Source: Amoebophrya sp. A120 (Eukaryota > Protista > Dinoflagellata). From it: 46,673 nucleotides of DNA. Position 1 is the stretch's first letter; each line of letters starts with the position of its first letter. Both the position numbers and the translations under genes were made by a program. The stretch is taken from the NCBI GenBank assembly GCA_905178155.1, contig CAJINV010000006.1:105415-152087 (forward strand). The letters are read 5' to 3'. Shown in pieces: positions 5,922 to 44,527 of the stretch. The notes below the pieces were generated by a model that saw only the letters and a list, made by a program, of their open reading frames with translations, was not told the DNA's origin and searched no databases.

Positions 5922-7535
5922 TTACAACTGGTCCGCGTGATTTGCTGAAAGCACCGGGTATGAGTCGTATGAGTGGGAAAAGCAGTGGAAGATGGTATCA
6001 TATCTACAAACGTCCCCACCTCATAGTCAAGCTGGGATGAACACTGCAAGAAGAAGTCCAGAAGTTTTGGGAGTCAACACGCAGGACAAGTTTTGTTCCG
6101 CTGTTTTGGAATGCAGAGTCGCAAGGACAGCCGCATCACAAATCCATCTGCTTATCGTGTTTACAGCAGTTTTACAAAAAATGCGCGAACATGAATGGAA
6201 ATGCCTATCGTGTGGATCCGCATCACGAATAGTCCTGCACTTGCAATAAATCCGCATGACAACTCTAGATCGGGGACGTTTATTTTACACACAGGATAGA
6301 TGTCGTCCGTCAAGTAACCTTTGGAGCAGTTCACGTTTGGTTCCACACGGTTTTTTATCAAATGCAAATATGTCTGGGTCTGGAAGGATCCGAACTTGTG
6401 ATGCGTGTTTCGGATCCTACAAAGATCTGTGATGCATAACGTGGAAAAGGTGCCCACTTCGGGCCATGTTGAGAGGGCATTTCTCATGGAGAATACGCAT
6501 TACCAAGGAGGGTGCAGAACCTGTGATGCTAGGCGTTGCATTCCAGACGTGGGGGAGCTTGCAAAAACTGGATGACAAATCTCGGAATCTCCCAGACCCA
6601 GACATTTTTACATTTGATATTTTTGAAGGCTGCTTCTTTCCGGGCCGGAGGAATGCGTCGAAAGATCACCCACAAGGCGTCGAGTTCGAGTTTACGCAGC
6701 TTTCGCTCCTCCTCTCGGTAATCCTCGTAAACGTACCGCAACCGCTTCTCACCGGAGGTAAGGAACGTGTAGAGCTGCACTTTGTTGATATCCTGTACGA
6801 CGTCCATTCTTGCGTACTCGACTGCTGTTCCACGTGGTGCTCTCTCCGTGTATGGTGTTCTCAACTGTTACGCTCTCAGCTGTTGCATGCTTTGTCATGC
6901 AGAACTCTCATCAGTATCTACGCCATCAAGCTGCCTCGCATGACAAATTTCCGAAGAGCTGAACAGCATCTAAATCTGTGCCAAACCTGTAATGCAAACG
7001 GCGAAATCTTCTCCCTCGCACATTTGCCATTTTTGCATTACAAATCCACGTAACAGTTGAGAATGTAACGCTTGAGAACGCCATACCGTGTGCGCTGGGT
7101 TTCCGTTGATGGAGGTGCCGCTGGATACCGTTCGGTGCCGCAACTGAGGGGTGGGGTCGTTATGGGAATCTCAAGCCTTACGCGGCTTGCTGATACATGA
7201 TTTGTGACGCAAAACAACCATGATCAACACCAGCATCCAGCACACAACCAAGAAACTACTTCGCATTACAAAGAACTTGGGCCAAACAAAAGCATGGAAT
7301 TGTTTGCCGAATTTGTAATCTGAAAGGTGCAGACACAGACTTTTGCCCCTCTTGCATGACAAACTCATCATGTACCGGCTGACATCGCTCGGACCGCTCG
7401 CATGGATTACCTTCTATCCCTTTTGCTCCTCCACGAAAGTAGGAATCCCAGGGGCATACTCTTGGACCTGAAGTAGAATTTGTGGGATCTCGTGGTCGAT
7501 TACAACTTGCAGAGCACCCCGGCAGAGTCGGTGAC
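5922..7535 (-). CDS. 3' exons of a hypothetical protein (5' end unresolved)
   Basis: Removing 6851-7085, 6356-6619 and 5996-6298 gives an open frame ...GNPAHTERAPRGTAVEYARMD...KEAAFKNRVEPNVNCSKGYLTDDIFHCF...DQL-stop (TAA 5922-5924). Upstream degenerate elements (about 7161-7458 and from 7538) are tentative. No clean frame could be carried through 7800-8600. Confidence 0.45.
6851..7085. mobile_element. Singleton introner, TIR TATGGYGTTCTCAA
   Basis: Perfect DR CCGTG; frame restored on removal. Confidence 0.8.
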
Positions 7536-8634
7536 CTTATAATTTTGTGATGCGTTGTCCTATGTGTTGTCTCTGAAAGCAGCAGAGTGCAGATTTGTGA
7601 CACGACGCCCTGATCAGGAAGGTCACGCAAAAACTTGCTGTGTTGTATCAGGTAGTAGAGACAGATCATCAATAATTTATGCAGATTTCCCGGCGCAAGG
7701 GAATGGAACTGCGACTGCCTTGGCGAGGGCAGGGGACAGGGCACCGCAGATCGCACAAGCTGGATCGTCCTCGAGTTCGCGCGGAGGCGTGGTCCACGAC
7801 TTGTTTATTTATCGATCAGTAAATCAAAAGGAAAAGTGCCCCCTTCCCATATCGAAAACGAAATTTGTGAAGCTGTATTTGAGTACACGAGTCGGCTTGT
7901 ATTGCTAGGAGGCCGCGGGTGTGGCCTCGTTTGCTGGCAATTTGTCATGCTGCTTCCCACCTCCAGCTGCCTCCTGCCATGCTGAAGATGCAAGGCTTTC
8001 CCACGACACCCAGCACTACGGTGCACATCTTTTCCCTTCTAGCACGACGAAGCTGACTTGTGGCCCCAAATCTGCATCACAGATTTCCGTTTTGATATGG
8101 GAAGGGGGGATTTTTGTTCTTGATACAGTAGCAGCCAAAAAAAAACTCTTCGGCGCACTGCGCGCGCCTTCTGAAACCCCAAACCCTTTCCGAAAATAAG
8201 AAGTCGACCCTTCCGCGCGGAGGGACGACCGGAAATTTCGGCTTCTTCTTGCGCCACAAGCGCCTGAAAGAAGCCGCCCCCTCCACCCGGAGGGGCCGGC
8301 TTCTTTCTGGGCCGCCAGCGACGGAGAAGAAACCCCCTCCACGCGGAGGGCCCGGTTTCTTCATGTTCCGAATCGCGCACGCTGCGCGCGGAATCTTCTG
8401 CGCGTTTGATGTTTTCCCGAAGAGGAGCCGCAGCTCGAGCAGTGGATTCTCACGGAGGTGGCCAGCTTTTTTATAATCCCGGCCACCTCATGAAAGCGCA
8501 GCACCCCTGCTGTGAACCATGGTTTCAGCAGGGTGTTGGCCTACTGTGTTGCAGAGTAATTATATCCGGGTCGAAAGTAGGGTGCAGAGTTGTGATACGT
8601 CCTGTGGAAGGTGGGTCAAGCAAAAAACAACGTC

Positions 8635-11600
8635 TTACGGCCGACGCGAACTGTACTCCCAGTACAACCACCAGTCGAACGGACATTCCTTATCGATTTT
8701 CTCCGTTTCTACTTGGTCCCGGAGTTGCTTCCTGGGAGCCGCGTTCTCGAATTTGCGAAATGTCTCCCGCTATCAAATGCAAAAGTGTCTGGGTCTGGAA
8801 ACTTGCGATGCTGGGTGGCGTATCATGAGGAGGCCGCAGGCGCTGGCTCAGAATGACAAGTTTCTGAGCTTCTAGGTGTTGCCTATTCTGCATGACAAAC
8901 TGCGTTTCTGCATGACAGGAAAAAAAAAATGGGGCTCTTGGGCAATGTGCATGACAAATTCAAGAGTCATGTGAGACAAGCATGACAAACTTGCATTCTT
9001 CCAGACCCAGACATTTTTGCACTTGATATCCGCCACTTGCAAAATTCGTCTGCTACTTTTCCGCCGCACTCGCTGAAAGACGGAAGATCCGTTAGCCTCT
9101 TCTTGCCCTCCAGAAAATCCGCGAAGTTCTTGTCCATTTCTTGTTTTTTCTTGTGCCGGTCAATGTCGAGGGCCAACGCAAATTCTTCCGGCTCTCCACC
9201 CTCCTATGCATGGCGAATATGTCTGGGTCTGGATAGACGCAGCGGGAATTTGTGTTGCTGTGTATTGCATGACAGAGCGATCTTTTATACGGCATCCCCT
9301 CGTCACAAACCGCATGACAAAAAATTGTCCAATGGTATTCTATGCATCAGAAATAATCAAAATCCTTGCTGTCTTCAAAAATTCGCATCACAAATCCAGA
9401 TCCAGATCGATACTTGCAGCGAATATGTACATCTTGGCTCGCAATATCTGCTGCACCACCAATTCCACCTGGTCGCGCGGCGGACGCGTTAACTTCTCTG
9501 GCTCGTTCCTCGGAATCGACGGCACCAGGGTGGGATAGAGAAAATCCGCGATGACACCATTTACGTCCTCCGGGAGACGCTTCTGGACCACGTTGTCGAA
9601 AATGTCGACCTGCGCCAACTATCAAATGTAAAAATGTCTGGGTCTGGAAGATTGCCAGGTTTGTCATGCACATTTTGCATGAATCCTGATGTCTGTGATG
9701 CATGCCCTAGCATCACAGACTTTGTGAGGGCTTCCTGATGCCTATACCGCATGACAAATGCTCTTTCCGTGTAGCAAAACTTGGACTCTCTTTGCTGCTC
9801 ATGCAATACAGATAGAATTTTTAGAGTCCAAATTCAGCATGAGAAGTTGGATTCTTCCAGACCCAGACATTTTTACACTTGATACCAACGCGCGGTCCCG
9901 CAAGAGCTTGTGGACGGTGATCGCGTTGGTGTAACCGAGGATCTGGAGCTCCGCTTCGCGTCGCACGTACACGTCGATGACTACGGCGCCGTATCGTATT
10001 TAAAAATGTCCCCACCCCAGAGTTGTCATGCAAATCTGCATGCTGAAAATGTTTCTCATAGGGAGCTGCATGAGAAGCGTCTTCCAGTCGTGTTTTAGAA
10101 TTTGTCATGCTCCAACCAGCTTGATATAGAAGATCCGTGACGTTGCTGAGCTAGCTCAAACAGCACTACAATACGAGTCCAAATTTGTCATGCAAAACAG
10201 CCGAAGCCTGTGGATTTGTCTAGCCGGGTCTCCATCTTGGCTATGGGGTGGGGACGTTTTTACATAGGATACGCCGTCTACAAAACTCTGAAGACACTGA
10301 GAGTGCAACTCTTCAAATGTACTTGAGAGTTTTGCCAGTTCATCGCCTGCCAACACAAGCCCGTCCGCCAACAGAGTGCGTAATTTGTGGTCGCGAATGT
10401 TGTATCAAGTGTAAAAATGTCAATGTCTGGGTCTGGAAACTTGTAATGCTGCGTTGGGAATAGTGAATGCTCTGTAATGCACAGCCAAGCATGAGATGAA
10501 ATATCTGTGCTTCTTTGTGTTGCGTTTTTCGCATGACAAACTGCGGTTTTGCTTGACAGGCAAAAGGGTCTCTTCTTGGACACGCATCGCAAACTTTTTA
10601 GTCATGCCAGAGAAGCATGACAAGCCTCGCAATCTTCCAGACCCAGACATTTTTGCATTTGATAAGTTGGCCACGCGCGCACGTTGGACGCGTTCGTAGA
10701 GACTGGGGTACCCGCGAAAAGCAGTGCTGGCAGATTCGTGGAAATGCCGAAGCTTATTGCAGACGTGGGTTCTCGTGGGCAGATCTACGTCACCGACGGG
10801 CTTCCTGGGATCACGGGCGGGGCGGGAGTCCAAGTACTCATCCATGAGACGGGAGGGAAAATGGGAGAAATTACGCCTCCGAACATCAACCTCCCAAACC
10901 TTCAACTTGTTTTCTACGAGTGAAGAGAGGTCTCGCTGTATCCACCGGTCGCCAGTTTTCTTGTGTGCTTCAGCTGCTTCCCTGAGCCCCTTATTCTTGT
11001 GACTGAGCGCAGCCAGAGCTACCCGCAACTTGCAGTCGTTTTTGTTCTGGGCGTATCAAAAGGAAAAATCCCCCCTCCCCATATCAAAATGGAAATTTGT
11101 AATGCTGATTTGGGGTCACAAATCATCTTTGTCTTGCCTATAGGGCAATAGGAGCCGTGTGGCGCATTCCAAAGCCAATCTGTCATGCGCTTTCGGCTAC
11201 TGCAGACCTGTTTGCCATGTGTAATTGCTAGCCTTCCGCATACCCAAACAGGCTCAGAAAATGCCGCCACGCACTTTCTGCAAGACAAACCTGATTTGTG
11301 TACTCAAATCCAGCATCAGAAACTTCGTTTTGATATGGGGAGGGGGGATTTTTCCTCAGAATAGGGCGAGGTTCGGCTGCGAGGGGTCGTACTTGTAAAC
11401 CAGGTTTTCGATGTGTTACAATGAAACATGCCCCCACCCCCGAACTTGGGAGCATTTGTATTGCAAACCTTTCCAAATGAAACATTCGCCCTCTTGCATC
11501 TATCAGCATCACAGGTTTGTTCCTATCGTGAATAGCAAAAATTTGTGTTGCAAAAGACCCTAGCAGAAGCGGCGCTTGTCATGCAAGCGATGTGATACAC

Positions 11601-14600
11601 GCGTAGACTCTGCATCAGAAGGATTCGTACTCCTTTCATGCGTGACGAAAAGTTTTCATTTGGAAACTTCGCATCACAAATTTTTGGAACTTTGGGGGTG
11701 GGGGCATTTTTCGCTGTAATAAGATGTCCTCTCGTATCTTTCGAAACGCCTTTGCTCGTTCGTTGAGCTCGTCTCGCTGCATCAGCACCTCGTAGGCATT
11801 TTTCGCTTCGTCCTGCAGGCGCTTCTCAACGGACGAGGAAGGATCGAAAATTCGGACACCATAAAGCGCACTAGCATAGGCGAGGGTCGGCTTCCGCTTC
11901 ACTGGTGGCGCATTTTTACTAGTAGCCGAAGTTGAACTACTCGAGTTGTTGTCCTCCCACCATTCTAGGAGTCCTCTTTCTCGCGGGAAATAAGAGGAGA
12001 GCCTGCTCTGTGCTGCGGATGATGCGGTCGTGGTATGACTCCCTGCAAATGCAGCTGCTGTGGGGTCCGCGTTGGCTTTGTTGTAGGTTGGCGAAGACGA
12101 CGAGGAAGAGGAAGTTACGACTTTCAAGGAACGAGTAGAAATGCGCGTGTTAGAAGGAGGTTTTTTACTTTCTCCTGTACCCGCGGAAGCAGGCTGCATC
12201 TTCATGTGGAGGAAGGCGGGTTGTTTGGAGTTAGGTAAGACCGTCAGAGCTACTTCTTCTTCTTTCAAAGACGGATCTTCTTCGTCCAGCGTCGTTGCTT
12301 GGTCCTCTTTTCTCGAAGACGGATCGCCCAAGGTCGTTGGCGTCAGATGCACGTAGCAGGACCCGGGCGTAGCTGTGCTTGTGCGCCAGCCTTGTATCCT
12401 GTGTAAAAACGTCCCCATCTCCCCAGAGTTCTTGTCTTTGTCGCGCAAATCTGCATGGTAAAAAATGTTTCTCATGCGGAGTGCAATGGGACGCGTTTTC
12501 TAGTCGTGTTTGGAATTCGGGAGTCTGTGATGCTGCTGGAGCTAGCTAAAGAGGATTACACTGCGACGCCTATCTTTTCATGCGCAGCCACCAAGAAGGT
12601 TTTATTTGTCTAGCAGATTTCCCATTTTGCGTTTGCCTCTGGTGTGGGGACGTTTTGACTCAGGATACCTTGCTCTGTGTGTTCCTCTTCGTCTCCTGCT
12701 GCGTGTGAAAGTGCACAAGCAACCCCCCCTCTCCCTCATTTGTATTGGGCATGAACACCAGCAAGACAAGCATCCGCACGAGTGCAGGTTTTGCATGACA
12801 CATTTGCTACGCAGGATTGTAGTGGTCCTGCTTGGGCTGACAATCAAGCCTTGTCATGCCAATAGTGCTATGAGGCTGACAAAGGGTGGACGAATTGGTA
12901 CTATTCTGCGTGACAAAAAATGAGGGGGAGGGGAGGTATGTGCACTCTGATACCGCGCCGGGACCCGATAGCGGCCTCAGAACCGCAGCTGGCCTCGGCA
13001 CGGACAGCTCCGGAACGCTGTGGCGCAGGTCGTGGCTCGACGCAGATGAAGACGAGGTGGCACGACCGCCGAAACCGAAAGCGGTGGCTTTTGCTGCTTT
13101 CGCACTAGTCATCGCCGTGATCATGTGCTTTGACGAGGAGAGAAGGTTCGTGGAGGGGTCGAGCCCGCCAAAATTGGAAACCGTTGCAGTTTGCTTCCCT
13201 TCGTTATTCTTGAAGGGTTCTTTTTTGCCCGTCCCCGTGCTGCTGCTACTGGACGACGTGCCTGACGCAGTAGCTTTCTCCGAAACAATTCGTGCTGGCG
13301 GGAGAAATGACGACTTTCCGATGAGGCGTTGGGGCTGAAAGGACGAGGAGCTGTTGCTGCGAGGAGAAGTTTTATTTTTGTCCGCTTTATTAAAAATATT
13401 GCTGCTCGGTCGTGACAGAAATGAACCAGCGTGAGAACTTTGGCGCAGTCTGTCGATGTAGTCCAAAAACTCGTGCTCTTTCGCCAGGCGACCTGTTCCC
13501 CCGGAAAACTCGACGTCGCAGCTTAACCAAAAATCCGCAAGAGTGCACAAATCCGCAAGAGCGTTGTCCTGTGCAAATACGTCACCTTCGCCCCAGAGTT
13601 GTCAAGCCTATCAATTCGCTACACAATAGACCAACAAGTTTTATTGGCTGTCTCGCATGACAAGTTTGGACTCGCAGTCAAACCCAAACTTCTTTTAGCA
13701 TGCGAAGCCGCATCACAGATCGATCGTCTTATCCTGACTCTAGCATTACAACCTCCTCTTAGATAGCACGAGGATTTGTTCCCCATGCAAAGGGTTCTTG
13801 CGCATGAGACACATTTGGCGGGGGCCGGGCTTGCAGATTTTTGCATGACATCAAGTCTGGGGAGGAGCTGTTTTTACACCGGATATTTGTCTGGTTGTGT
13901 TCGCCGGATGCTTGTTTCCAAATCAGCCCAGAAAACAAACCCTTCGCTGTTGCGCCACACAGCGGGGTAGAATCCGCTTGCCGCTTCTGCTTTGGAAATT
14001 GGTGGCTTCGTTTTCTCGTGGTAGTGGAAAAAGTGGTAGGTGCCGTTACATCCGGAGCTCCCGCGAACCCACTTGACTGTCACGACGACCTGTTCTAACC
14101 ACTCTACTGCCGGTTTGTTTTTCACGCAGTGGTAGGGGATGGTTGTAATCACCTGATTTTTATTCCCGCCTCGATCAACATCGCACGCAAACTGCACCAG
14201 CACCACCCCAACTCCGTCGAGTTCGTGCCAGTTGCTGTCGCAAAGTACCGCATCTTTTTTATCGTGCAAGGAGCAACTACCCAAACTTTTTGCACCACAG
14301 TGAAGTCGAGAAGAAGAGAAGTTCTTGTAGACGAAATGGTCCTGCTTACTAGTATCATCAGCTTGACGGACAACTACATCGACATTGCTGGGTTTGGTTT
14401 CGTGTGAACTCATTTTTTCGAGGTTCGTTTTATTATTTCCACTGCCCAAGTGATTTGTACTGCTGGACGACGCGGAAGAAGATGATTTTTTACTACCACC
14501 ACTGCCAGAGCCTCCAATGCCAGAATTGCTCGCCGGTTGTGTTTATGCATTGCAAATATGTTGTCTGCTCCCGGGTCTGGAAAGTCAAAGCTCGAACGTG

Positions 14601-15988
14601 TAATCAAATCTGCATTGCATGTAATATGCGTGGTCACAAATCCTCGCTGTCCTTCAAAATTTCGCATCACAAAGCAGACCCAGATCGATATTTGCAATCT
14701 GCATACACTCTCGCTGGCTCGCAGGCTCTCCTGCTTCGCCCACTTCACCTGCTCTTCCTCCGACATTTGGGCGAGCTTGGCTTGCTCGCGGCTCTGCTGC
14801 AGCGCCCACTTTACCTGGTCTTGCTCCGACATTTGGTCGACCTCCTCCTCTGTCAAGAACTCGGCACCACTGCTTTGCAGCTGTTGCCCCTTCTCGTAGC
14901 TTTTATGCAGTAGTGAAAATGAATTTCTATCTATTCCCGCACACGTACAACGTACAGCAAGATGAACTGTCGCCACCTCATAACAAGGCTGAAAAAAGGT
15001 AGGAGCGGAAAGAACGCTCTTGCTTGCCTGCAGTAGAGATGTTGCCATTTGCAGTTCAGTACGTCTACGGGATACTAGATTTAGTATTCCTGTCGTGGAT
15101 ACTACTTTATTTTGTCCCCGGTCGCTGCACTTGTTCCGACACTAGTAGCTCGCTTTTGCTTTTTGTTTCTGCTGTCGTTGTCAGCATCGTTTTGCTCCGC
15201 CTGCATTGATAAAACGTTGTTGGAAGTGGAAGTACCAGAGGAGGTCGCGGAGGAAGATGAAGCGGCCGGTCCTGGGTTATTATTCTTCCGTTTCATAGTC
15301 GTTTTTCCTCGTGTGTTGTTCTTTTCCACGAGACCCATCTCAACGTTCTCAGCAGACTTCGCCCGACCACGCGCAGATGATACTGCTGCTGGTGCGCCAG
15401 AAGACGACGATGCGGCGACGGCGGTCGTATTGGGGATGTTGACTTCTTGCTGAGTACTATCTACTTCATGCCGTTCGTTGCTCGTTTTGATGCTCTATCA
15501 AATGTAAAAATGTCTGGGTCTGGAAGAATGCAAGTTTGTCATGCTTGTCTGGCATGACTCTTAAATCTGTCATGCACATTACCAAAGAGCCCCACTTTTC
15601 TGTCATGCAGAAACGTAGTTTGTCATGCAGAATAGGCAACACCTAGAAGCTCAGAAACTTGTCATGCTGAGCCAGCAAGTGTGGCCTCCTCATGATATGC
15701 CACACAGCATCACAAGTTTCCAGACCCAGACATTTTTACACTTGATATGCTAGTACTGGCCCCTGCTCTTTGTCCTCCTCTCTTAGCAGGTTGTCCCGTA
15801 GAGCTACTGTTGCTGCTGCTTCGGTTATTGTTTTTCGCGTTACCTCCTACTGGTGGTGCTGCTGGTGCTGCTTTAGCAGAACTAGACGCGGAGCTTGCAG
15901 CGGGCTTCTTTTTCCCATTTGTCGTGGTGGAACGCACCTGGTTCTTGTTCCGCTTGTTGTTGTTATTAGTTTTCTTGTCCGGCGGCAT
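8635..15988 (-). CDS. Large hypothetical protein (paralog 1): low-complexity N-terminus, two UIM-like motifs, conserved helical region with F-box-like motif; 13 introns
   Basis: Frame stays open after removing 15496-15747, 14904-15101, 14544-14705, 13565-13885, 12704-12952, 12395-12667, 11414-11721, 11054-11363, 10403-10664, 9992-10271, 9620-9884, 9205-9425 and 8771-9028. Contains MSEQDQVKWALQQS / MSEEEQVKWAKQES and KRLPEDVNGVIADFL. Aligns by eye with the gene at 16908-23937. The 3' end is the least certain part. Confidence 0.75.
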
Positions 15989-16907
15989 GACTTGTTTTCG
16001 TTGAGACGAAGAATGCAAGAAAGAAGTCTTATTTTCCGCAAGTAGAAGAATTCTTTGTCCACCTACTACTTGTTTCTTGGCAAGCACAAGTACAAAAGAT
16101 TTCTTCTATGGTGGTCTAAGTATAGTGAGGGTGCAGTGCTATTAAACAGGTTCAGCAACGACCAGGAGCAGGAAGCCCACAAATAAGAAAGCTAAAGCAC
16201 ACGACCCGAAGAAAGAAGACGGAATTTTACATTGTAGCAGTAGGTGAAGCAACAGCGGCATCATGAACTTTCTGAAGCAACAAGCAGTAAGATTTCTTTG
16301 GGCGGAAGAACCGATTTGGCTTGATCATTTTGGGTCCCAACACGGAAGCACTCGCTCGGATTTGGGTAAATAGAGTGAATGTTTTGGAGGTCTGCTCATC
16401 TCTCGTCATTTACTCGGCGGTGTGGTCGTCCACAGGAACAACGAGATGAACACAAGTATTACTACTTACTCCCCGAGGGTTGATGTCACGTGTGCCCTAC
16501 TTAAGGAGCCCCCTAGCTGCGGGACAACATTAAAGCATTTAAACTAGAGTGCAGCTTGTCACACTGAGTTTTTTTTTCAACAAGTCGTTGCAGCCTGAGA
16601 CAAAAAACATGTTGTCATGATGTCGTGTGTGAAAGTGTATCGTGTGTTGTTTCCTCGGAGTCACGTTTTTTTTCCTTTTGTTTCTCCTGATATGTCGGTG
16701 CTGAGCCAAGAAAAAGGAAAAGTTTTTTCCGACTGTTGTGCGTTTGCTTCATGGCACAAATCAACGCGCAAGTAAGCTAGTGTAGCTTGCTGTCGAAAGA
16801 ATTCACTTGGTAGAGATCTAGATGCCTTTTTATGAGCTAGAGTTTGTATTTGAATACAGCAACTATCCTAATCACAGAATAATATGCACTCTCTTTTCTC
16901 ATAAGTA

Positions 16908-19900
16908 CTATTCTAGTCCCTGATCCCCGTTGACGGCAGCATCGGCAAGGAGCACCTGTTGCATCTCGTAATGATGGATGGTAGCGTTGGCTGTTATCAA
17001 CTGCAAATATCCAAATTCTGGGTCAGGAAAGACGTGAATATGCTATAAACAAGTAGAGTACGCAGGCTAAGCATGACAGATTTTTGAAGGGTTCCGTGCA
17101 AAATACTGCGCATGAGAAACTGCGTTTTTGCATGACAAGGAGTCAGCGCGAATGCTATTCCACAGCACGCATTTCGAGACAAGCTGGGAGTATGGAAGTT
17201 TTAGTTTAGCACTACATACCTGGTATATTATCTTCCAGACCCAGATCGATATTTGCAGTGGGTATCTCTATCTGTCGAGAATTCCTCATCTTCGTTTCCG
17301 CCTGGACGAAAAGGTCGCTGATTGTTTCCAGGAATATCATATCAACTGTAAAAATGTCTGGGTCTGGAAGAATCCAACTTGTCATGCTGATTTTGGATTC
17401 TAAAAGCATCTGTATTGCATGAGCAGCAAAGAGAGTCCAAGTTTTGCTACACGGAAAGAGCATTTGTCATGCGGTATAGGCATCAGGAAGCCCTCACAAA
17501 ATCTGTGATGCTAGGGCATGCATCACAGACATCAGGAGTCCTGCAAAATGTGCATGACAAACCTGGCAATCTTCCAGACCCAGACATTTTTACAGTTGAT
17601 ATATCAACCTCGTGTTGTTGTTGTTCCATTTCCGCGTCTCCGTCATCCTCCGGCGGCAACAGGAGTGGACCAGCATTGTTCCCATTATTCCGCCGGAACG
17701 GTGTGCTGCCCGCCAGCATCGTGTTGAAAGTAAGACCCGGCGTGCTACTGGCCCTGCTGTGGAGGTCCTCGTCGTTGAAAGTAGAGGTAGTAGCTGCAGC
17801 TGTGTTCTTCATCTTCTTTCCCTGCATTGTACTAGTGCCTTTGATGTGGTTCTTTCTCTGTAGTACCGAGCGCTGCTGGTTGTAGTTCTGACGCGAGGAA
17901 CTGCTGCCCTGAGTAGTTTTTGCGCGAAGGGCAAGAGAACTCAGTTTCTGCTGGCGGAGGTCGAGGCTGAAGAGTCGGTCTTTGTCCACTGCGACTTGCA
18001 CCCGCAGTTGTTCCCGCAGACCCACAGCGTCGAATTTTCGGAGTTCGTCCCTCCACGCGTGTAGCTTCTGCACCGTCGTATCCCTGAGCACCACGAACTT
18101 CTGGACACTCTCGAGCGGAACCTGCGACAGCTCTACCTCGTGCTGCAGAAACTTCGCTACTTTCTCGTCGGTCTCGCGTTTCTATCGAATGCAAATATGT
18201 CTGGGTCTCGAAAAGTGGAAATTGTAATGCGTGTCCTGCATTCCTGGAAAATCTGTGTTGCGTGAGCAGCAGAAGAGCCGCTTCCTTTGTCATGTAAAAA
18301 CGGAGTTTGTAATGCGTGCTAGACATCAGAAAGCGTTTCAAAAACTTGTCATGCTTGGCTGCCATGGCAGGCGTTGCAATCAGCAGCAAATCAGCATCAC
18401 AGGTTTTCAGACCCAGACACATTTACATTTGATAGCTTAGCGACGTCCGCGTCGTAGTCCAGGAGTGCGATGCGTGACGCTACGCTCGTCTCACGGTCCA
18501 GGATCCGTTCCTCTTTTGCGTCGATTGCGGGCGGCGCTGGTCGCGGAGCCAGCCAATCCGTGATCAGCCCGTGAATCTCGGCCGGCAGTCGTTTCTGGAG
18601 GACATTGTCGAGGATATGATCGACGTGCTTCTCCACTTGTTTCCGCCAGTTGTGCTTGCTCTTTACCGAGTTGACGCGCCACGTTTTCTATCCAGTGCAA
18701 AAATGTCTGGGTCTGGAAGATTTCTAGATTTGTGATGCATATTTTCCATGACCCATGATGTCTGTGATGCATGCCGTAGCATCACTGCTTTTTGGCGCGC
18801 TTCCTCATGCCTATTCCACACGACAATCAAATGCCATCTCCGCAGAGCACGAAGTCTACCCCTCTTCCTGGTCATGCAATGCAGACCCTTTTCGAATCCA
18901 AAGACAACGCCACAAGTTTAGAATCTTCCAGACCCAGACACTTTCGCACCTGATAGCTTCAGATAATTGCGGGCGTTCAGGTCAATCACAGCAGAACCCT
19001 GGACGAAGATGCGCACGCACTGCTCATGTAGCTCCTCACAGTATTGCAAGGAAAAATCCCCCCGCCTTATATCGGACAGGAGATTTGTGATGCTGGATTT
19101 GCGTACGCAAGTCGCTTTGTATTGCTAGAAGATCAAGGGACGCAGCTGCGTCCTTTTTTGCAGCCAATTTGTGACGCTTTTTCCCACTTCCAGTCGCCTC
19201 CTGTCATGCTGAAGACGCAAGGTCTCCTCACACCTGCCAGCACTACGGCCCGCATCTTTTCCCTTCTAGCATGACAGCACGACTTTTGGCCACGAACCAG
19301 CATTGCAGGCGTCCAGCTGATAGAGTATGGGGCGGGGGGGTTTTTCACTTTGATACGCAGGCCTCCGCCAGCTTCGCCAGCTCGTCGGCCGCGAATCGGA
19401 GGCCGTTGAGGAGAACAATGACAGCGGCAGGGCTTTTTCGTGACTTGGTTGGCAAAATCAAATGCAAAAATGTCTGGGTCTGGGACAGAGCAGCTTGTCA
19501 TGCTAAATCTCAATCATGCAAAAATCTGTGTTGCATGATATACCAGAAGCTGTCGACTTTTGACCTAGTCGAGAGGCAGGTTTTCATGCAGGATAGGCAT
19601 GATAGAACCGTCACAGAATCTGCCATTCTATGTTCTACATAACACACACCATGGGTCATGGAAAACCTACATGACAAACCTACCAATTTTCCAGACCCAG
19701 ACATTTTTGCATTTGATATTGAGAGAACTCCGCGCCGTGGCCGCGAGGACGTCGTACCCCTTGACCGCGTCTTGCGCGGATTTTTCGAACAACCGAAATT
19801 TGTTAGCCAGGGCGTCTTATGAAGTGTAAAAATGTCTGGGTCTGGAAGAATGCAAGTCTGTCATGCTTGTCTGGCATGGCTCGGAAATCTGTGATGCATA

Positions 19901-22900
19901 GGCACGAAAAAGCCTTCTTACCTGTCACGCAAAAACGCAGTTTTCCATGCGAAATACGTAAGACATGGCCGCCAAAAAATTTGTCATGCATAGCTGCGTA
20001 TTGCAGTGCGTCTATCATTCATTTTTAGGATTACAGGTTTCCAGACCCAGACATTTTTACAGTTGATACGTCTCCGGGTTCTCCGGGCTCTCGGGTTGGG
20101 GGAAAGGGCTCCGCTGGCTGTGTACTATGGCGCCCGGCAGCGACGAGGGTCAGGAGGTGCTGCATCCTCTTCACCATTTCCTCCCCCTTTTCCTCTCCCA
20201 CTACACGAAGGGCTCGATTCTTCTCACGCAATATGCAAGAAAAAAAAGTGTATAAAGTGGAAGTCTGTGACGCAGAAAATGCAAAACAGTGACGCTTGAT
20301 GTCATACTCCACATGCGTCATAAACTCGTTTCCTACGTGTCTGTTTTCCCGTGCTATCTGCGCATGACAAGTTTTTCTTGTCAGGGAAGACAAACTTGTG
20401 ATGCTGTTTTCCCAAAAGACCTACACTATCACGGTTTTTTTCTTTGATACACAAGTCTTCCAGCTCGTTGCGCAACCCGCAGTAGGCGGAGTTTTTGTAT
20501 CGCGGGGAAAAATCCCTCTTCCCCATATCGAAAAGGTACGTCGCAGAAAATTTGCAATGCTGATTTGCGACCACAAATCATCTCTGTCTTGCAAGAAGGC
20601 AACTTTTCCACAGGCTCTGCCGCATTATGCAGGCGGTTTGTGAAGATGCTGTTTGGCCTACCGCGCAGATTTTTCTCATGCTAAGCGACTAAGTAGGCCA
20701 AACCCTCTCTACTCAGGCTTGATGTGGGCCTGCAGTCCTCTTCAGTAAGACAAATCTGATTTGTGTACGGAAATCCAGCATCACAGACTTGGTTTCGATA
20801 TGTTGGGGAGGAGGATTTTTCTTTTTGATATTTTGCGGTCGGGGTTCAGGTCCTCACGGACTTTTCGCAACCTCAGTCCCCGCAAATTCAGTTCGTGTCG
20901 CTGCTTCAGGAAATCATCCAGGATCCTTTTCTCCGCGGAGAGCTTGGCCTGAACCTTCTTCACAAACTCAACCGTGTTTTCCTCGTTCTCCCCTAGTTCC
21001 TCGGGTGCTGGCGTGTAGGCCGGTTCTTGCAGGAGCACCGGTCGTCCTCGTTTGGAGAGTCCGCATTCGGACGTTGACAAAACATCTGGAGTTTTTTTAC
21101 CTTCTGTGAACAATACAGCCGCTGGAGGAGCCGGAGTTGTGCCACGACCCGCTTGTTCAACATTTTCTTCTATCAAATGTAAAAGTGTCTGGGTCTGGAA
21201 ACTTGTGATGCTGGGTGGCGTCTCATGATGAGGCCACAAGTGCTGGCTCAGCATGACAAGTTTCTGAGCTTCTAGGTGTTGCCTGTTCTGCATGACAAAC
21301 TGCATTCCTGCATCACAGAAAAGTGGAGCTATTGGGTAACGTGCATGACAGATTTAAGAGTCATGCCAGACAAGCATGACACACATGCTTTCTTCCAGAC
21401 CCAGACATTTTTGCATTTCATATCTTCCCCATCAGAAACGGGTCGAGAACCACCCTCACATTCTGGATCGAGAACCTCCACACTGCTGGAAGAAACAGAA
21501 GCATCGCAAGAAAAAACTGTTTCACTGTGAACCTGTGATGCAGCAGAGAACGAAGCGCCAAAGTGTTCGTCCTGCTTCTACACCTGCAACACAATGGCTT
21601 TTTAGTCATGTTTTCATCCCTTGGGGAACGCGCATGGCAAATTTTCTGTGTCATGTGTTGCAAACTTGTGACGCAGATCTTGCAATAGATCCATCACAGT
21701 GAAAAAGTTTTTTCATGGGATAAGAAATGCTGGACCGCGGTCGTTCATCTCGAAGCCAGAAGGTGGAAAATGCAGAAGGCAGAGGTTATCAAATGTAAAA
21801 ACGTGTGGGTCTCGAAACTGAATGATAGACGCACTGCAGTACGCAGCTATGCATGACAAATTTTTTGGTTGCCATGTCTTACGTAGTCCGCATGGCACAC
21901 TGCGTTTTTGCATGACAGGTAAGAGGGGTTTTTCGTGCCTATGCAACACAGATTCTCGAATCACGCCAGACAAGCATGACAAACTTGCATTCTTCCAGAC
22001 CCAGACATTTTTACAGTTGATAGAGGCGCAAAAGCAGAAGGCGGAGGGCACAAGTGTCGCTATTATGCACGGTGCAAATAACCTTCTATCGTACCAGAGT
22101 CGTCGTGGAAAAAAATTTTTATTGCATTTTGTTTCAATTTTTTCAATAAAGGGAAATAAAGTTAAATGGATTATTTGCATGATATGCTGCCTCAAGCAGG
22201 AATTTCTACTAGTAGAGTAGTTGTCACGACAGTAGTACTAGCTCTAATTTACTATGCAACGAAATGCGCGATAGTACAGGTACAACTTTTGATGCACAGG
22301 TCATACTGCAAGTCTCCATTGCTGTTCGGGCGGGAAAGTAGCCGCGGCCGAAGAAGTATCAAATGTAAAAATGTCTGGGTCTGGAAGAGTGCATGTTTGT
22401 CATGCTTGTCTGGCATGACTCTCAAATCTGTCATGCACGTTACCCAAGAGCGCCACTTTTGTGCCATTCAGAAACGCAGCTTGTCATGCAGAATAGGCAA
22501 CACCTAGAAGCTCAGAAACTTGCCATGCTGAGCCAGCACTTGTGGCCTCCTCATGATACGCCACCCAGCATCACAAGTTTCCAGACCCAGACACTTTTGC
22601 ATTTGATAAGAAGAGGAAGCAGGGTTAACAGCAGATGTAGTTGCCAGGGAATGGTAGTTCTGCTTCTTACTGGTACTGCCGACCTTAGTGTCGTCTTTGG
22701 GTAGTAGGACGGTTTTTTTGTCGTTATTTGCCGGGTAGTTGTTGTGAGACCGTTTCTTGGTAGGAAGACGCTTGTTGGGAGGTAGTAAGACGGTTTTTTT
22801 GTCGTTCTTCTTCTTTTTGTTGATTTCAAAAAGCGCACCAGTATTGGAAGACCAGGGCGTTTTTCGGACGGCGCCACTCGAGGAAGCAGCGGCTTTAATC

Positions 22901-23937
22901 GGGGAAAAGCGTATTTTCTGTTTACTATTACCGGCGCCAGAATTTTTGCCCGTACTAGCAGAGGAAGAGCCATGGTTTGCGACTCCGTTCCTCTGTGCAG
23001 AAGATGAGGTCGCGGCAGGTCCGGACTTCTTGTTCCGCTTGGCGCTGGAAGAAGGAGGGGTGAAGCCCGGGTTGTTCTTCGCCAACTTCCCGCTCTTCTC
23101 GGTGTTCTTCTTGTTTTCAGAATTGACAGAGGAAAAACGGGAGAAGGGCTGCTGTTTCGCATCACCGGAACTCGCGCTAGCACTCTCCTGCTGGATCATC
23201 GCATGGCTGGATAAAAACACGGACTTGGACGACAACGAACGGTCTTGCCTCTTCGACACTGTTGGCGCGCCGTCAACATTCTTGGCACAAGTAGACTTCC
23301 GCCCCTGCTCTTCTTGTTGTGTATTGCAAACGCGTCTGGGAGGTCCTACGCGTTTACTTTTACTTCCAGCGAGGGCGGAAGACGAAGAGGATGGCAATCC
23401 CGCGTTTATTCCTGGTCCGTGGCCAAACAGCTGTGGATGTATTTTTTGTTTTTCGTTGCACTTTTCTTTATACTGATACTGAAAAAGATGATCCGCATGA
23501 TACTGTCTGGACTGCAAAACACTCGTCTCTAGCATGACAAACATCAAATGCAGCACAGACTGATGCACAAAAGTCAAAAACTATACCTCGACCTCCCTGT
23601 TCATTTTCTGCTTCTCCTTCTGCAGCCGGTACTTCTCAAAAACCGCGATCTTGTTTGACGAATTTTTCGACTGTAGTTGTATTTCGCGGTTGATTGGGCT
23701 TAAACAAGCATCGGATGACAATAAATCACCCCTGTTTACTACTGCCGGAGCAGGACGTGGACGTCCCGCAACTGCCATTCCGTTTTCCCCTTCGTCTCGA
23801 GCATTCAGCTTATTCTCTCTGCCGACCTTAGTGTCGTCTTTGGGTAGCAGGACGGTTTTTTTGTCGTTCTTCTTCTTTTTGTTGCTTCCAAAAAACGCAC
23901 CAGGGGGCGTTTTTGGATACCGTTTGCCTGGATACAT
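16908..23937 (-). CDS. Large hypothetical protein (paralog 2): K/S-rich N-terminus with KKKKNDKKTVLLP repeats, shared helical region with F-box-like motif; about 15 introns
   Basis: Frame is restored across 23479-23586, 22357-22608, 22061-22305, 21787-22022, 21502-21722, 21171-21422, 20498-20830, 20232-20449, 19818-20068, 19456-19718, 19042-19355, 18689-18955, 18183-18434, 17340-17601 and 16995-17264. Blocks matching paralog 1: LLNGLRFAADELAKLAEACEELHEQC vs LADGLVLAGDELAKLSSTFEELHSQC; NVLQKRLPAEIHGLITDWL vs NVVQKRLPEDVNGVIADFL; WRDELRKF vs WRETFRKF. Confidence 0.75.
17340..17601. mobile_element. Introner family A (representative; about 31 copies), TIR TATCAAATGCAAAAATGTCTGGGTCTGGAAG
   Basis: DR TATCA here. 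Other copies: ~875-1474 (truncated), 3295-3562, 6356-6619, 8771-9028, 9205-9425, 9620-9884, 10403-10664, 14544-14705, 15496-15747, 16995-17264, 18183-18434, 18689-18955, 19456-19718, 19818-20068, 21171-21422, 21787-22022, 22357-22608, 28772-29027, 31415-31674, 33148-33427, 33722-33990, 37876-38137, 38392-38656, 38733-38990, 40136-40396, 41001-41262, 42761-43023, 43057-43347, 44210-44472, 46564-end. Confidence 0.95.
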
Positions 23938-29832: not shown

Positions 29833-30599
29833 CTTTTCGCGAGGGAATAGAGAACTTTTCGTCAGCACTTTCTTGCGTCGTTCTCAGAAAGCGGCGAGAC
29901 AATTCCAGGTTACTTTCTGATCTGGATAAATGCGCTTCGCGACTTGCTGTTCCGAGTACGGGGGAATTCCGAGTACTACTATTATGTATGCCGGGTGTAG
30001 AGCTGGCTGTGATAAAATCTTTTGAATGTATGAAGGATGTGACACGACCAGTGCCAGGAACGATGGCCGCTTTGGCTTTACTTAAGTGGCTGCTCGTGTA
30101 AGCTGCTTTTCCGAGTGGTTGGTAGTGACCTGTAAATTGTAAAAAACTATATGGTGTAATAAAATTTGGAACAAAAATAGATTTTTGTCTACACGTGTAG
30201 TAGTTCTGGTTCGTCTTGGCGTAGTTCTTGTGGATAATTTATCCTCAAATCAAACCGGAGCGAAGACACGCTGTTCACTCGCTTCTTCGTCGGTATAATC
30301 ACTGGCCGTGGAGTTCGTGTGGAAGAAAGATTTCAAAATTACGTATTAAATAAAGTGAATTCGGGACTAGTATTCGGATCTACTTCAGGATCGATATAAT
30401 TACGTCGCGGTAGATGAACACTTGTGAAAGAGCTGGTGTGAAAAATGTGTTCGTGATTTTGTTGTATGAACTCGGTCTGACGGATGCAGTGAAAAATGTT
30501 TTATAGCGTATAATTCTTGTCCATGTCGTGATCATCGAGCAAAAACAACTTTTCTGGAAAGATATGAGTCCTGGGTCTTCTTGCTGTCGTGCCAGCACT

Positions 30600-30857
30600 G
30601 TTATTTTCGGGACCCTCGCCTGCTCCTACACCGGGCGGAAACAGCCGCCCAAGCAGTCTAAAATCTGCCATGCCTGTATTGGAGCGCACCCGCGGGTGCG
30701 CTCCACTGTGGACCCAGTTATTTTCGGGACCCTCGCTGGCTCCTACATCGGGCGGAAACAGCCGCCCAAGCAGTCTAAAATCTGCCATGCCTGTATTGGA
30801 GCTCCAATGTAGACCCAGTTATTTTCGGGACCCTCGCTGGCTCCTACAACGGGCGGA
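30600..30857. repeat. Intergenic tandem repeat, about 2.4 copies of a 100-117 bp unit with palindromes
   Basis: gttattttcgggaccctcgc at 30600, 30717 and 30817. Hairpin ggcgg-aaacag-ccgcc. Perfect palindromes at 30680-30705 and 30795-30808. Confidence 0.9.
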
Positions 30858-31359
30858 GCCAGCATCATCACGCTAGCAACAACGCCGAAAAATAGAAACT
30901 CAGGACGACGCTCTGATTCGTTATTTCGCACTCCTCGGAAAGATGAACGCACAAAAAACCCAGATTGCTCTAAAAGCATGATGACCAAATGAACACACGT
31001 TCAGCACTACTATAGACAGCTAAGATTCGCCGCAAATCCAAATCGCTCGGTCGGGGTGTGTGTTTATTCTTGTGCTATTTTGGCCTTGCTGTAGTCTCGC
31101 CGTGCAACACAAATATACGTGCAACTACACAAATTTTCCGTCAAAAGATATTGTGGTCTCTTATCATACGGATAGAATGTTGGTCTTGCCTCCCAAGGTG
31201 GGCGAGATTGGTTTTTTGCACGAACAATAACACTCCTCACCCCGTCGCAGCCGCAGGGAATGTTATTGAATCTGCGTGACTTACGATAAGATTAAGAGGG
31301 TATTAGTAGTACAAGGACCTTATGATCAATAAATTTTTGCAACATCTTCACGAGCAGTT

Positions 31360-34300
31360 CTAGATGGGGATGTAAAGTGTTGCGTTCGTATGAATATTGT
31401 CCATGTCCTCCACTTATCAACCGCAACAATGTCTGGGTCTGGAAGAGTCGGGACTTGTCATGCACATTTTGCATGACCCGTGAGGTCTCTGATGCTGGTG
31501 CTAGCATCACAGATTCTTTGAGAGCTTCTTGATGCAAATTGCGCATGAGAAATGCCCTCTCCGCGTGCCAAGAACTGACTCCTCTTGCTGCTCATGCAAC
31601 ACAGATATTTTTAGAATCCGCAGACAGCATTACAAGTTCCACTCTTCCAGACCCAGACATTTTTGCTATCCATACCACTCGTGTGATATCCCAGGCCCGT
31701 AGCGACTGCTTGAATTTTATCATTTGTAAAAACGTCCCCACACCAGAGTCAAGATGGGAAATCTGCTAGACAAATCAGCCAGCTTTGGTCATTTCGCATG
31801 ACAAGTTTCTCCTCGTAGTGTAATCCTGTTTAGGTAGTTCAGCAGCATCACAGATCTAGTATATCATGCAGATTATAGCATCACAAATTCCAAAACACGA
31901 CTAGAAAATGCCTCTCATGGCGCTACGCATGACAAACTTTTTTGGCATGCAGATTTGCATGACAACTCTGGTGTGGGGACGTTTTTACTCAGGATAAATT
32001 TTGCCGCCTGGAAAAACATGCTTGCCATGTTCCTCACAGTGCTAACGTCCCACTTATCCATATCCTTTGTAAAAAAAACGTCCCCGCCCCATAGTAATAG
32101 CCAAGATGGGAAATCTGCGTAGAAAAATCAACAAGCTTTGGCTGATGTTGCGCATGACAAGTTTGACCTCGTAGTGTACCTAATCCTCTTTAGCCAGTTC
32201 AGCAGCATCACAGATCTAGCATATCATGGTGATTGGGGCATTACAAATTCCAAAACTTCTACACGACTAGAAAATAAGAATGCTTCTCATGGGACTCCGC
32301 ATGAGAAACTGAAACATTTTCCGCATGCGGATTTGCATGAAAACTCTGGGGTCAAATTCTGGGGTGGGGACGTTTTTGCAGAGGATAGTCCAGCGGCTGG
32401 TTAAATTCCCGGGCGGTCATAAACATCCCTGACATTATCGTGAGAAAAAACTGTTGCAGTTACACACTCTGACGCAACATCAGCAAGACAGACAATCTCT
32501 GTCATGCAGGAGATGCTTGCCAATGCCAGCTTCATTTCATTCGTCTTTTCCGTTATAGTCATCTGCGCATTACAAGTTTGCTTTGCCGTGCAGAGCAAGT
32601 TTGTGATGCTGAAATTCCAACAAATGGGTAACTGTTATAACTACACTTTTTTCCGGTGATAGACATGTCCGTCACATTACTGACGTTCCAGTCATTATCC
32701 CACGAAAAAAATGTTTCACTGTGGTGATCCTGCAAAATCTGCATCACGACAAGTTTGCTACGCATGACACTGAAAATCTGTCATGCGGGGTTCCTATCTA
32801 CTTAAGGGAAAACACAGCTAGAAATCAATTGTCTTGCCTGTGTAGCATGACACACACTTCTGCGTGCGATCCATTTTCTGCATCACAAGTTCACAGTGAA
32901 ACAGTTTTTTCTTGCGATAGTCATTCAAGGGCTGGTTGAAATTACTTATGCATTGCAAAAGCACCATTGCACTCGTATAATAAATGCAGTACAAATTTAC
33001 TCGGCATGAGAAATAAAATTTGTAATGCGGATTTGCCTTAAGAAAAAGATTTGTAATGCATGACTGCAATCGCTACGAGTACGATACTTTTGCACAGGAT
33101 ATTACTCGCGCCAAAAAACATCCGGTCCATCGTTGTCACGCTGAAAATATGCATTGCGATTATGTCTGGGTCTGGAAGTAGATTCCGAGATTTGTCATGC
33201 AGTTTTTCCAAGCTTCCTCGAGTCTGGAATGCGGGGCCTAGCATCACAGGTTCTCTCTGCAGCCCCTCCGTGATGCCTATAATTCTGCATGAGAAATTCA
33301 TAGCCTCTCTGCATGGCCAGAAGTGCGCACCTTTTGCCAGTCATGCAACACAGATCTTTGCGTGATCCGCAACTCGCATCACATCAATTTCGGATCCTTC
33401 CAGACACAGACATATTTGCAATCCATAGGAAACATCCCAATCTTGGATCGGCTTATTGAAGTTCACCGCACCGCTATCCAAGAAAAAAAGTGTGTTAGTG
33501 TAACTATCTTTGGCTGACAGCATCACAAATTTGCTCTACATGACTGAGTAAACCTGTCATGCGTGGCCTGTAAGGGAAAACACACATGAAGCGAGGACTT
33601 CATGGTTGTCCGGCATGACAGACGTGAGGCTGTTGCATGTTCTGCATTACAGAGTTACACTTACACAGTTTTTTTCTTGCATAACCGCTGAACATGCCAA
33701 CCATGGTTTTCGCGCCACTGATATGCATCCCAAAAAATGTCTGGGTCTCCTGGAAGATTTGGAGAGTTTGTCATGCAAATTGTACATGGCCTTCGAAGAT
33801 GCATTCTCTAGCATCACAGCTTTCGCAAAGGTTTGCTTAAAATCCCTGTTCTGCATGAGAAATGCCCTCTTCGAGTGGCAACAATCCGAGCGCTTTTTGC
33901 CTCTCGTGCAATACAGATTTTTGTGTGAAGATCGACAGCTGGCATCACAAATCCCATTCTTTCCAGACCCGGACATATTTGCAATGCATAACTGACGTCC
34001 CACTGGCTTATGTCCAGGTCGAAAAAGAAGGCGCGGGTAAATAAATTGGAAAAGTCTTCCACCTGCGACAGGTCCCAAATGCGGATGGGCCCGTGCCTTT
34101 TCTCGATCTCGAAAATTTCCCGGACCTGCTATCGTAAGGAAAAATCCCTTCACCCCATATCGAAACGGGATTTCTATATGCTGGATTTGTGTACACAAAT
34201 GCGCTTTGTATTGCAGGAAGGCATTCCCTTGTCTTCTTGCACGACAAATGTGATTGGTGGTCACAAACCAGCAACACAAATTTTCGGAAACATACCTTTA

Positions 34301-42900: not shown

Positions 42901-44527
42901 GGCATGATAGAGCTCTCGCAGAATCTGTCATGCTAGGCGCTGCATTCCAGACCTCATGGGGCATAGAAAACCTGCATTACAAATCGCATATTCTTCCAGA
43001 CCCAGACATTTTTACAGTTGATATGCAGGTATTCCTGGTCGTCGCCATCCAAGGGGTATCAAATGCAAAAATGTCTGGGTCTGGAAAGAACTTGTGATGC
43101 AAGTCTGCGACGTTTGGGCGCACTGGAGTACACAACCACGCATGACAATTTTTCGAGCTGCTGTGTGTTGCGTACTTAATGTTAATCCGCATGACAAATT
43201 GCGTTTTTGCATGGCAGGCAAGACCACGCGCGGCTCTACCTCGTGCCAATGCACAGTCACAGACCTGCTCAGAGTTGTCATGCCAGACAAGCATCACAGA
43301 TCTTGCACTCTTCCAGAATATCGCAGATATGATATTTGCACTCGATAAGGGGTCGTCATACTCAAACAGCAGTTGGATATTTTCCCAAAACAATGATCTT
43401 CTAGCAGGAAGTCGTTTTGTAGCACCTTCTACCTTGTGGTTTTCGTCTGCACGAGGACTCGATGCACTTTCGGAAATTTTTTGATTCAGTGGTACCGCAC
43501 GGTCAACAAGAACATCGGCATCCTTATGTCGCGGATCATCCCTCTGCCTCATCAACGCATCGCAGATCGCGGCTTTCAGATCCTTCACCCGGGGGGGTTG
43601 TGGTGCTGGCGCGTGTGGTGCAAGTGCAACAGCCACAGCAGCAGCATTTTTTCCCTCGCTGCTTGTGAACCAGGAGGACGGAGACGGACCACTGCATAAT
43701 TCTTTCCTCCAAAGCAGTTCCGTTCCGCCATGAAAAAGCAACGGATCTCCGGTGAGTGCGTTCACAACAGCGATTTGTAGGGTGAGATTCTCCTGCTCGT
43801 GGTTCTTGTGGGATGAGTTGTTTTTTGGGTTCAGTATTATAGTGAAAAATGCTCCCACCTCCCCAGCACTTGCCAGCATTTGTACTGCAAACCTTTCCAA
43901 TGGAAACATTCACTCTCTTGCATATCTCAGCATCACAAATTTTCCATGCTGAATAGCTCAAATTTGTGTTGCAAAGGAGCCCAAAAGCAGGCGGATCTGT
44001 TATGCAAGATTCTGCGTCACAAAGGAGCCCCTTGCGTGCCTAGATTCTGCATCACAAAGGCTCGCAGTCCTTTCATGCAAGACAAAAAGCTTTCATTTGG
44101 AAACTTTGCATGAGAAACATTTGCAACTTCCGGGGTGGGCGAATTTTTCACTGTAATATTCGACATCTCTGGTCGTTGTACTCCTCCGGTATCATCTACT
44201 CCCACCTCGTATCAAATGCAAAGGTGTCTGGGTCTGGAAGATTCTAAACTTGTAATGCTGACTCTGGATTGTAAAAAAATTTGGATTGCATGACCAGCAA
44301 AAGGACTCCAGTTTGTGCTACGTAGAGAGGGCATTTCTCATGCGGTAGAGGCATCACAAAGTCCTCTAAAAATCTGTGATGCTAGGGCATGCATCACAGA
44401 CATCATGGGTCAGTCAAAATATGCATGACAAACCTGGCAATCTTCCAGACCCAGACATTTTTGCAGTTGATACCTCGGCGGTCGCAGGATACTGCTGCAG
44501 CGCATCGGCTATTTCCGAAGTCAACAT
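36924..44527 (-). CDS. BspA-type leucine-rich-repeat (DUF285) protein, paralog 2; 20 introns
   Basis: Continuous frame MLTSEIADALQQYPATAE...FWENIQLL...KHGPLRIWDLSKIQDL...FNEDISQWDVSGATTMELMFYENKDFNQPLDAWNTSRVTNLQYCFAGCLAFDQDIRQWDVSKVTNMEGMFSCAVNFDRDLNGWDVRKVTSMARMFQHAKRFNQALDRWEV...NQRS-stop, after removing 20 elements between 36966 and 44472. Confidence 0.9.
41853..42131. mobile_element. Introner family B (representative; about 15 copies), TIR TATCCTGTGTAAAAACGTCCCCACCCC
   Basis: DR CCAGG here. Others: 2924-3217, 5996-6298, 9992-10271, 12395-12667, 13565-13885, 25824-26102, 31718-31996, 32061-32387, 35016-35300, 37526-37809, 39051-39324, 39378-39656, 39771-40058, 42460-42749. Confidence 0.95.
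43835..44158. mobile_element. Introner family G (2 copies), TIR TATTAYAGTGAAAAAT
   Basis: Relative at 11414-11721 shares gcatttgtaytgcaaacctttccaa. Removal of either copy restores the reading frame. Confidence 0.85.

Follow-up and report, generated by a model that had tools for sequence, protein, structure and literature searches.

Canonical GT and AG ends of introners in the dinoflagellate Amoebophrya sp. A120 are probably chance gifts of the insertion site, and copies that read GT-AG would be free to lose their repeats, with no stepwise series behind them. A first-pass annotation of the window, i.e., the whole 46,673-nt stretch analyzed here, had arranged its elements by age and read the most decayed ones as introners domesticated into GT-AG introns. 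What survives of this proposal is that one or two GT-AG introns of the window are likely decayed introners, whereas the stepwise series of GT followed by AG is not supported. The wider issue is how hairpin-closed non-canonical introns are spliced in Amoebophrya and whether they become ordinary, for which a true age series would represent conversion in progress. What the data offer instead is an expectation of about 2.5% GT-AG due to the target site alone, one constant splice register and two relic candidates; with these, conversion can be tested on the public genome, but the question is not answered.

Introner anatomy and splice register

For two exons of the window, protein matches at 100% and 98% carry the name Amoebophrya sp. 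A120, and the elements of the window are the already published introners of this strain, mostly a known phenomenon. In their open-access text, Farhat et al. (2021, PMC7789003) describe A120 introner elements with inverted repeats beginning TAT and direct repeats of 3-5 nt (5 bp in the legend to Fig. S19), spliced at non-canonical sites that start with NT; in either strain, every top-ranking non-canonical site carries T at position +2 (Table S4). The same repeat layout is reported for 15% of canonical A120 introns, introns conserved in position between A25 and A120 are 98.6% canonical, and no U1 snRNA was found. In A25, the elements begin with TTA. Transcript alignments underlie the public A120 gene models, and genes are described as lying in co-oriented blocks, which matches the window, where all modeled genes are on the minus strand. 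Within the open-access text of the literature, we found no published test of introner conversion to canonical introns in Amoebophrya, nor one in the accessible parts of PMC12130899 and PMC11282704.

We curated 76 window elements, including the six listed by the first-pass annotation (selected features in the table). When every core is excised together with 5 nt, the reading frames of six minus-strand genes, which hold 72 of the 76, become open; a seventh gene, with four elements, was modeled only in part. The flanking direct repeat measures 5 bp, being perfect in 41 elements and matching at four or more of five positions in 62. A 4-bp duplication with one extra base was rejected, as each of the five positions has its share of mismatches (24, 19, 20, 21 and 17). 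The "4+1" arrangement proposed earlier does describe the splice register: in the transcript-guided public models P0001 and P0002, our source of junction evidence, introns begin 1 nt before TAT and end 4 nt after ATA. This register fits 10 of 10 informative junctions among 21 introns matched to the two models, against 1 to 5 of 10 for the other five registers tried; it is the sole fit in five of the ten, and for one of these five (7157-7410) the element's bounds were taken from the annotation. Accordingly, the opening base of an intron and its final four bases derive from the target copies, so that a target ending in AGG yields GT-AG at once, which applies to about 2.5% of copies.

An internal 8-nt motif, GCAWNASA, recurs in both orientations across unrelated introner families. 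We defined it by eye from this window, where its density is 16.5 per kb within elements, compared to 0.28 within exons and 0.74 between genes; across the window elements and the 385 elements of the second assembly described below, the densities are 16-18, 0.3 and 0.6-0.7 per kb. It is possibly a protein-binding or splicing signal. We found no mention of the motif in the available text of Farhat et al. (PMC7789003), and the introner terminal motif had no match in a viral sequence collection.

The two host genes modeled by P0001 and P0002 share a 28-residue block (E 2e-8), and Pfam assigned no family to P0001, P0002 or the exon at 17603-18178. In P0001, what look like two genes are joined across a GT-AG intron of 1171 nt (7468-8638, minus strand), inside which lie open frames and an intact introner (7822-8125); the fusion is possibly an annotation or read-through artefact. 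Two further minus-strand genes with short tandem repeats (31400-36000 and 36900-44530) carry 13 and 20 introners and exons as short as 6 nt; their repeats presumably resemble DUF285/BspA-type surface-protein repeats. The C-terminal part of the gene at 1480-3922 (minus strand) is, we assume, similar to nicotinamidase/isochorismatase-type hydrolases. The last element of this gene (ca. 870-1475) appears both truncated and interrupted, close to a tandem repeat of 13-14 nt that occupies 1-470. Between genes, three imperfect tandem copies of a ca. 110-nt unit occupy 30590-30870, and a 494-nt element at 41303-41796 looks nested or composite, with the same terminal family starting at about 41303 and at 41490-41520.

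Table. Host genes, introners and introns of the window discussed in the text (positions of the window)
Feature	Position	Strand	Remarks
Host gene, 13 such introns	8635..15988	-	Public model P0001 runs further downstream
Host gene, 16 such introns	16908..23937	-	P0002 covers the first part
GT-AG intron at introner register, likely relic	14900..15102	-	Residual inner arms; no target duplication
GT-AG intron at introner register, best-supported relic	22060..22306	-	Residual terminal repeat; introner-like 3' end
GT-AG intron of the first-pass annotation	23479..23586	-	No terminal repeat; two GCAWNASA copies; acceptor differs from public annotation
Donor 23586 with annotated acceptor, 156 nt, likely ordinary intron	23431..23586	-	T-rich start, A-rich end
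Introner, GT only	14540..14706 (first pass: 14544-14705)	-	Repeat 1/5, clear TIR
Introner, AG only	9201..9426 (first pass: 9205-9425)	-	Repeat 2/5, six internal motifs
Introner, AG only	16991..17265 (first pass: 16995-17264)	-	Strong TIR (43)
Intact introner reading GT-AG, counter-example	12391..12668	-	Repeat 5/5, TIR 44.5, same register
Intact introner reading GT-AG, counter-example	44206..44473	-	Repeat 5/5, TIR 57.5, same register
Decayed introner, GT..GA in public model	7157..7410	-	Absent from first-pass list
Introner, neither canonical end	13561..13886	-	Decayed repeat 2/5
Introner, neither canonical end	19452..19719	-	Repeat 1/5, strong TIR

Terminal dinucleotides and element age

The proposed series treated elements with a single canonical end as intermediates. 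Yet among the 69 window elements with at least three of five repeat matches, 22 read GT, 10 read AG and 2 read both, so that 30 elements with intact repeats carry at least one canonical end, and such an end is no sign of age. The three one-ended cases singled out earlier (14544, 9205 and 16995) each have a terminal inverted repeat (TIR) whose score was reached by 0 of 300 shuffles; 14540-14706 is a sister of 9201-9426 (88% over 60 nt), and the junctions of both agree with public models. For 16991-17265 we found no public protein model covering the element; its AG is present in both repeat copies, i.e., it was inherited from the target site. The series also overlooked two intact elements reading GT-AG (the counter-examples in the table, 2 of 41 window elements with perfect repeats) as well as decayed elements without both canonical ends (13561, 19452 and 7157).

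Repeat-poor window elements (at most two of five matches) do read GT-AG more often than the rest (3/7 versus 2/69, Fisher p=0.005), a selected and partly circular comparison in that the three are the first-pass choice and 23479 is bounded by its GT-AG alone. Without these three introns, no trend appeared in the remaining 73 window elements (rho -0.04 for TIR, +0.04 for the repeat). Restricting the count to repeat-poor window elements that bear a TIR gives two of six reading GT-AG (binomial p of about 0.009 at 2.6%, post hoc).

For an independent sample we used another assembly, with at least 144 stretches returned by a terminal-motif scan that covered 18 of 64 parts. The matches listed come from loci on JACKZZ01 contigs, which contain the same introner families as the window, with ca. 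67-79% identity in the longest matches; none of those listed, and none among protein hits either, was orthologous to P0001 or P0002. We kept 133 non-nested loci of 141 (746 kb). In the window, the detector made 68 calls, all correct, and missed 8 of 76 elements, including 14544, 14900, 22060 and 23479. In the loci it returned 472 unique elements, from which one edge element and 86 without confident strand were dropped to leave 385. A search of 245 coding gaps, which demanded exact TAT and ATA and a TIR of at least 15, added 44 elements; of 216 weak gaps, 19 passed this threshold in frame, compared to 8 and 6 in the out-of-frame counts, so that chance accounts for part of the weakest. Applied to the window, the gap search placed 14540 at the top, followed by 14900, and did not recover 22060. 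As the detector missed the relics and the gap search recovered only part of them, the oldest class is under-sampled.

Among the resulting 429 predicted elements, 140 read GT, 32 AG and 11 both, and the product of the separate GT and AG rates (2.4%) is close to the observed share of GT-AG (2.6%). Old elements (n=19) comprised 9 with GT, 1 with AG and 1 with both, compared to 114, 25 and 6 in the young (n=347); GT is thus mildly raised (p=0.22) and AG is not. There was no correlation with TIR score (rho 0.03, n=385), the nine GT-AG copies among the 385 are no more decayed than the others (median TIR 46 versus 45.75), and 7 of 308 perfect-repeat elements outside the window read GT-AG. Comparison of intron-side with exon-side copies of mismatched repeats revealed no intron-side gain (G 10:7, AG 5:9). 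Motif-poor elements are GT-rich (10/17 versus 130/412, p=0.03), a post hoc comparison that is confounded because the ordinary donor is GTAT as well. The loci contain a single decayed candidate with GT-AG ends, L008. Four elements (L053 10319-10598, L058 8376-8657, L030 12152-12479 and L051 1526-1821) combine good to strong terminal repeats with a 5-bp duplication matching at only 0-2 of five positions, indicating that an element without the duplication need not be old.

As a reference we used 93 predicted GT-AG introns, from which 10 on a conflicting strand and 25 with element homology were removed; the remaining 58 non-introner introns are ab initio predictions and a noisy set. They start with GTAT in 14 and GTAC in 13 cases, i.e., about equally often, and the most frequent donor hexamer is GTATAG (7/58). 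An excess of GTAT among canonical donors, as anticipated by the first-pass annotation, was borne out (24/94 coding boundaries versus 66/736). The companion excess of ATAnnAG ends was absent: ATA at -7 occurs in 0 of 21 ordinary GTAT introns, and in 3 of 151 acceptors versus 0-2 at other offsets. Apparent intron-specific pairing of the ends of GTAT introns (2/2000 by cross-pairing) was discarded, since within-intron shuffles leave it in 1 of 14, an introner missed by the detector. GCAWNASA occurs 11 times in 36 ordinary-looking introns, about twice the 4.9 of shuffles (2/300).

These data bear on the idea that selection drives introners stepwise to GT and then to GT-AG, so that the spliceosome recognizes them like any other intron and their TIRs are then left to decay. 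In its favor are the GT-AG share of repeat-poor window elements, selected as they are, the mild increase of GT in old or motif-poor elements, the GTAT excess, the doubled internal motif in ordinary-looking introns, the published introner repeats in canonical A120 introns (PMC7789003, open-access text) and the two relics discussed below, where canonical bases lie solely on the intron side. We nevertheless consider this scenario unlikely: neither the 73 window elements nor the 429 others display a gradient, AG is flat (1/19 old versus 25/347 young), one-ended "intermediates" are equally common among intact copies, ordinary GTAT introns lack ATA at -7, and their end pairing vanishes under within-intron shuffles in all but the one case.

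Candidate relics and the third intron

All six stretches listed by the first-pass annotation have the end dinucleotides given there, on the minus strand, and are removed in frame. The junctions of 14900-15102 and 22060-22306 agree with the public proteins P0001 and P0002, respectively; an in-frame donor 3 nt upstream of 15102, chosen by the gene parser, was rejected as P0001 fits 15102 instead. Target duplications match at 1/5 positions in 14900 and 0/5 in 22060. The statement that 14900, 22060 and 23479 retain essentially no TIR applies to 23479 (193/300 shuffles) and needs qualification for the other two. The anchored terminal repeat of 22060 scores 23.5, reached by 0 of 300 shuffles, and in 14900 the anchored terminal score is weak (29/300) while inner arms score 31.5 (1/500 shuffles; fold z -2.99). 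Moreover, the 3' end of 22060 scores 33.5 against a library of introner termini, above all 12 shuffled best scores (maximum 26), its nearest terminus being that of an ordinary element, L004, with a perfect 5-bp repeat. The sequence features suggest that 22060 and, less firmly, 14900 are likely true decayed introners. In both, the G and AG occur only in the intron-side repeat copy, a pattern that fits later acquisition as well as birth with these bases followed by exon change.

The intron with donor 23586 has a different character. P0002 joins this donor to 23431, not to 23479, and both acceptors are in frame. The donor reads GTATAG, the commonest ordinary donor hexamer of the lineage, and the direct repeat of the 23479 form matches at 2/5 positions. 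End pairing of the 156-nt form gave z -1.6, p 0.02 and 246/500 in three separate assessments. Its T-rich start and A-rich end are the reverse of A-rich introner starts, and it had no match in the introner terminus library. We conclude that this is likely an ordinary intron. A ca. 80-nt exonic segment of the same gene is duplicated on both sides of it (22680-22830 and 23820-23900).

Could all three be ordinary ancestral GT-AG introns, with GTAT as the local donor and ATA and end pairing arising by chance? None of them has a BLAST match at E<=1e-3 to any element of the 141 loci or the window, and 14900 and 22060 are the only 2 of 76 window elements devoid of GCAWNASA. Against the terminus library, the ends of 14900 do not outscore shuffled sequence, nor does 22060 as a whole fold better than its shuffles (z -0.27). 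The frequency of GTATAG among non-introner introns and the near-uniform canonical ends of position-conserved A25/A120 introns (PMC7789003, open-access text) point in the same direction. Against this, exact ATA at -7 occurs in 2 of the 3 versus 0 of 21 ordinary GTAT introns, self-complementarity is significant in both 14900 and 22060, and the 3' end of 22060 outscores every shuffled library comparison, which makes an ordinary origin of all three rather improbable.

The two candidates also resemble each other. Their 3' ends are alike (33.5 versus 13.2 +/- 2.9, 0/500), 22060 is the joint-best match to the end of 14900 among 998 TATGC sites, and both end in ATA-AnAG, an ending that no more than 6 of the 385 elements have. 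Together with the block shared by the host genes, this means that they may not be independent cases, and they are possibly sisters in paralogous genes. That they represent one old introner subfamily carrying its own GT and AnAG ends, canonical by design, agrees with these likenesses and with the lack of a target duplication at the introner register in either, but it is unlikely given the want of further copies with such ends in about 0.79 Mb, a weak whole-intron similarity (6/300 shuffles) and the closest terminus to 22060 being that of L004.

Origin of GT-AG ends and comparison with known systems

We thus favor the insertion site as the source of canonical ends. Insertion leaves a 5-bp duplication, and a target ending in AGG makes the copy GT-AG at birth; the TAT of the element would supply positions +2 to +4 of GTAY, the ordinary donor of the lineage. 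All copies would probably be cut from birth by the same relaxed, U1-lacking spliceosome, with the hairpin placing the 3' cut where AG is missing. A copy with two canonical ends, whether born with them or given them by a later random mutation, would no longer need its hairpin and internal motif, and such copies would likely shed their terminal repeats to give relics such as 22060-22306 and 14900-15102. Such a release of constraint predicts loss of the motif, in keeping with its absence from these two alone. Whether the relics were born GT-AG or converted later, the data fit both, and a point against release is that the GT-AG copies in the set of 385 have decayed no further than other copies.

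From the percentages given in the open-access text of Farhat et al. (PMC7789003), GT-AG ends would be expected in 10-21% of introns with repeats, a share well in excess of our 2.6%. In 44 of 385 elements, an in-frame GTAT..ATAG lies three bases short; if used, or chosen by an aligner, such sites possibly explain much of this gap. In the one checkable window case, the core at 9620-9884, P0001 does not use them. A bolder extension, which we regard as speculative and unlikely to hold, is that GT-AG introners are kept and eroded until they make up a sizeable share of the "canonical" introns of A120, with TAT acting as a mimic of GTAY and the internal motif as a shared splicing signal.

The elements share TAT inverted repeats, 5-bp repeats and NT-starting sites with the A120 introners of Farhat et al. 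(PMC7789003), in whose open-access text the point of splicing is treated as variable with respect to the hairpin, in contrast to the fixed register described here. An age-series test was not found in that text, and unlike the introners described there, the three GT-AG introns of the first-pass series have neither direct repeat nor family homology. The "intermediate" introns of euglenids (Milanowski et al. 2016, PMC4770533, accessible text) are likewise hairpin-closed and non-canonical, some with one or both ends canonical; a GT/C end alone is considered no evidence of kinship there, and one GC-AG case is discussed as a possible conversion. They belong to another lineage, pair +4..+6 with -8..-6 instead of TAT with ATA, and follow no 5-bp duplication rule. 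Closer in lineage, the introners of the dinoflagellates Symbiodinium and Polarella bear target site duplications, and splice-site change was tested against age (Roy et al., bioRxiv 10.1101/2020.10.14.339549); as far as the accessible part of the preprint goes, orthologous positions revealed a real age bias from GA to GC, whereas our comparison, which graded copies by TIR and repeat decay, has no comparable bias. Fungal introner-like elements (PMC3609843) are spliceosomal introns already, and a change of end dinucleotides is not at issue in the accessible text on them; they decay until they are indistinguishable from regular spliceosomal introns, as proposed here for the relics.
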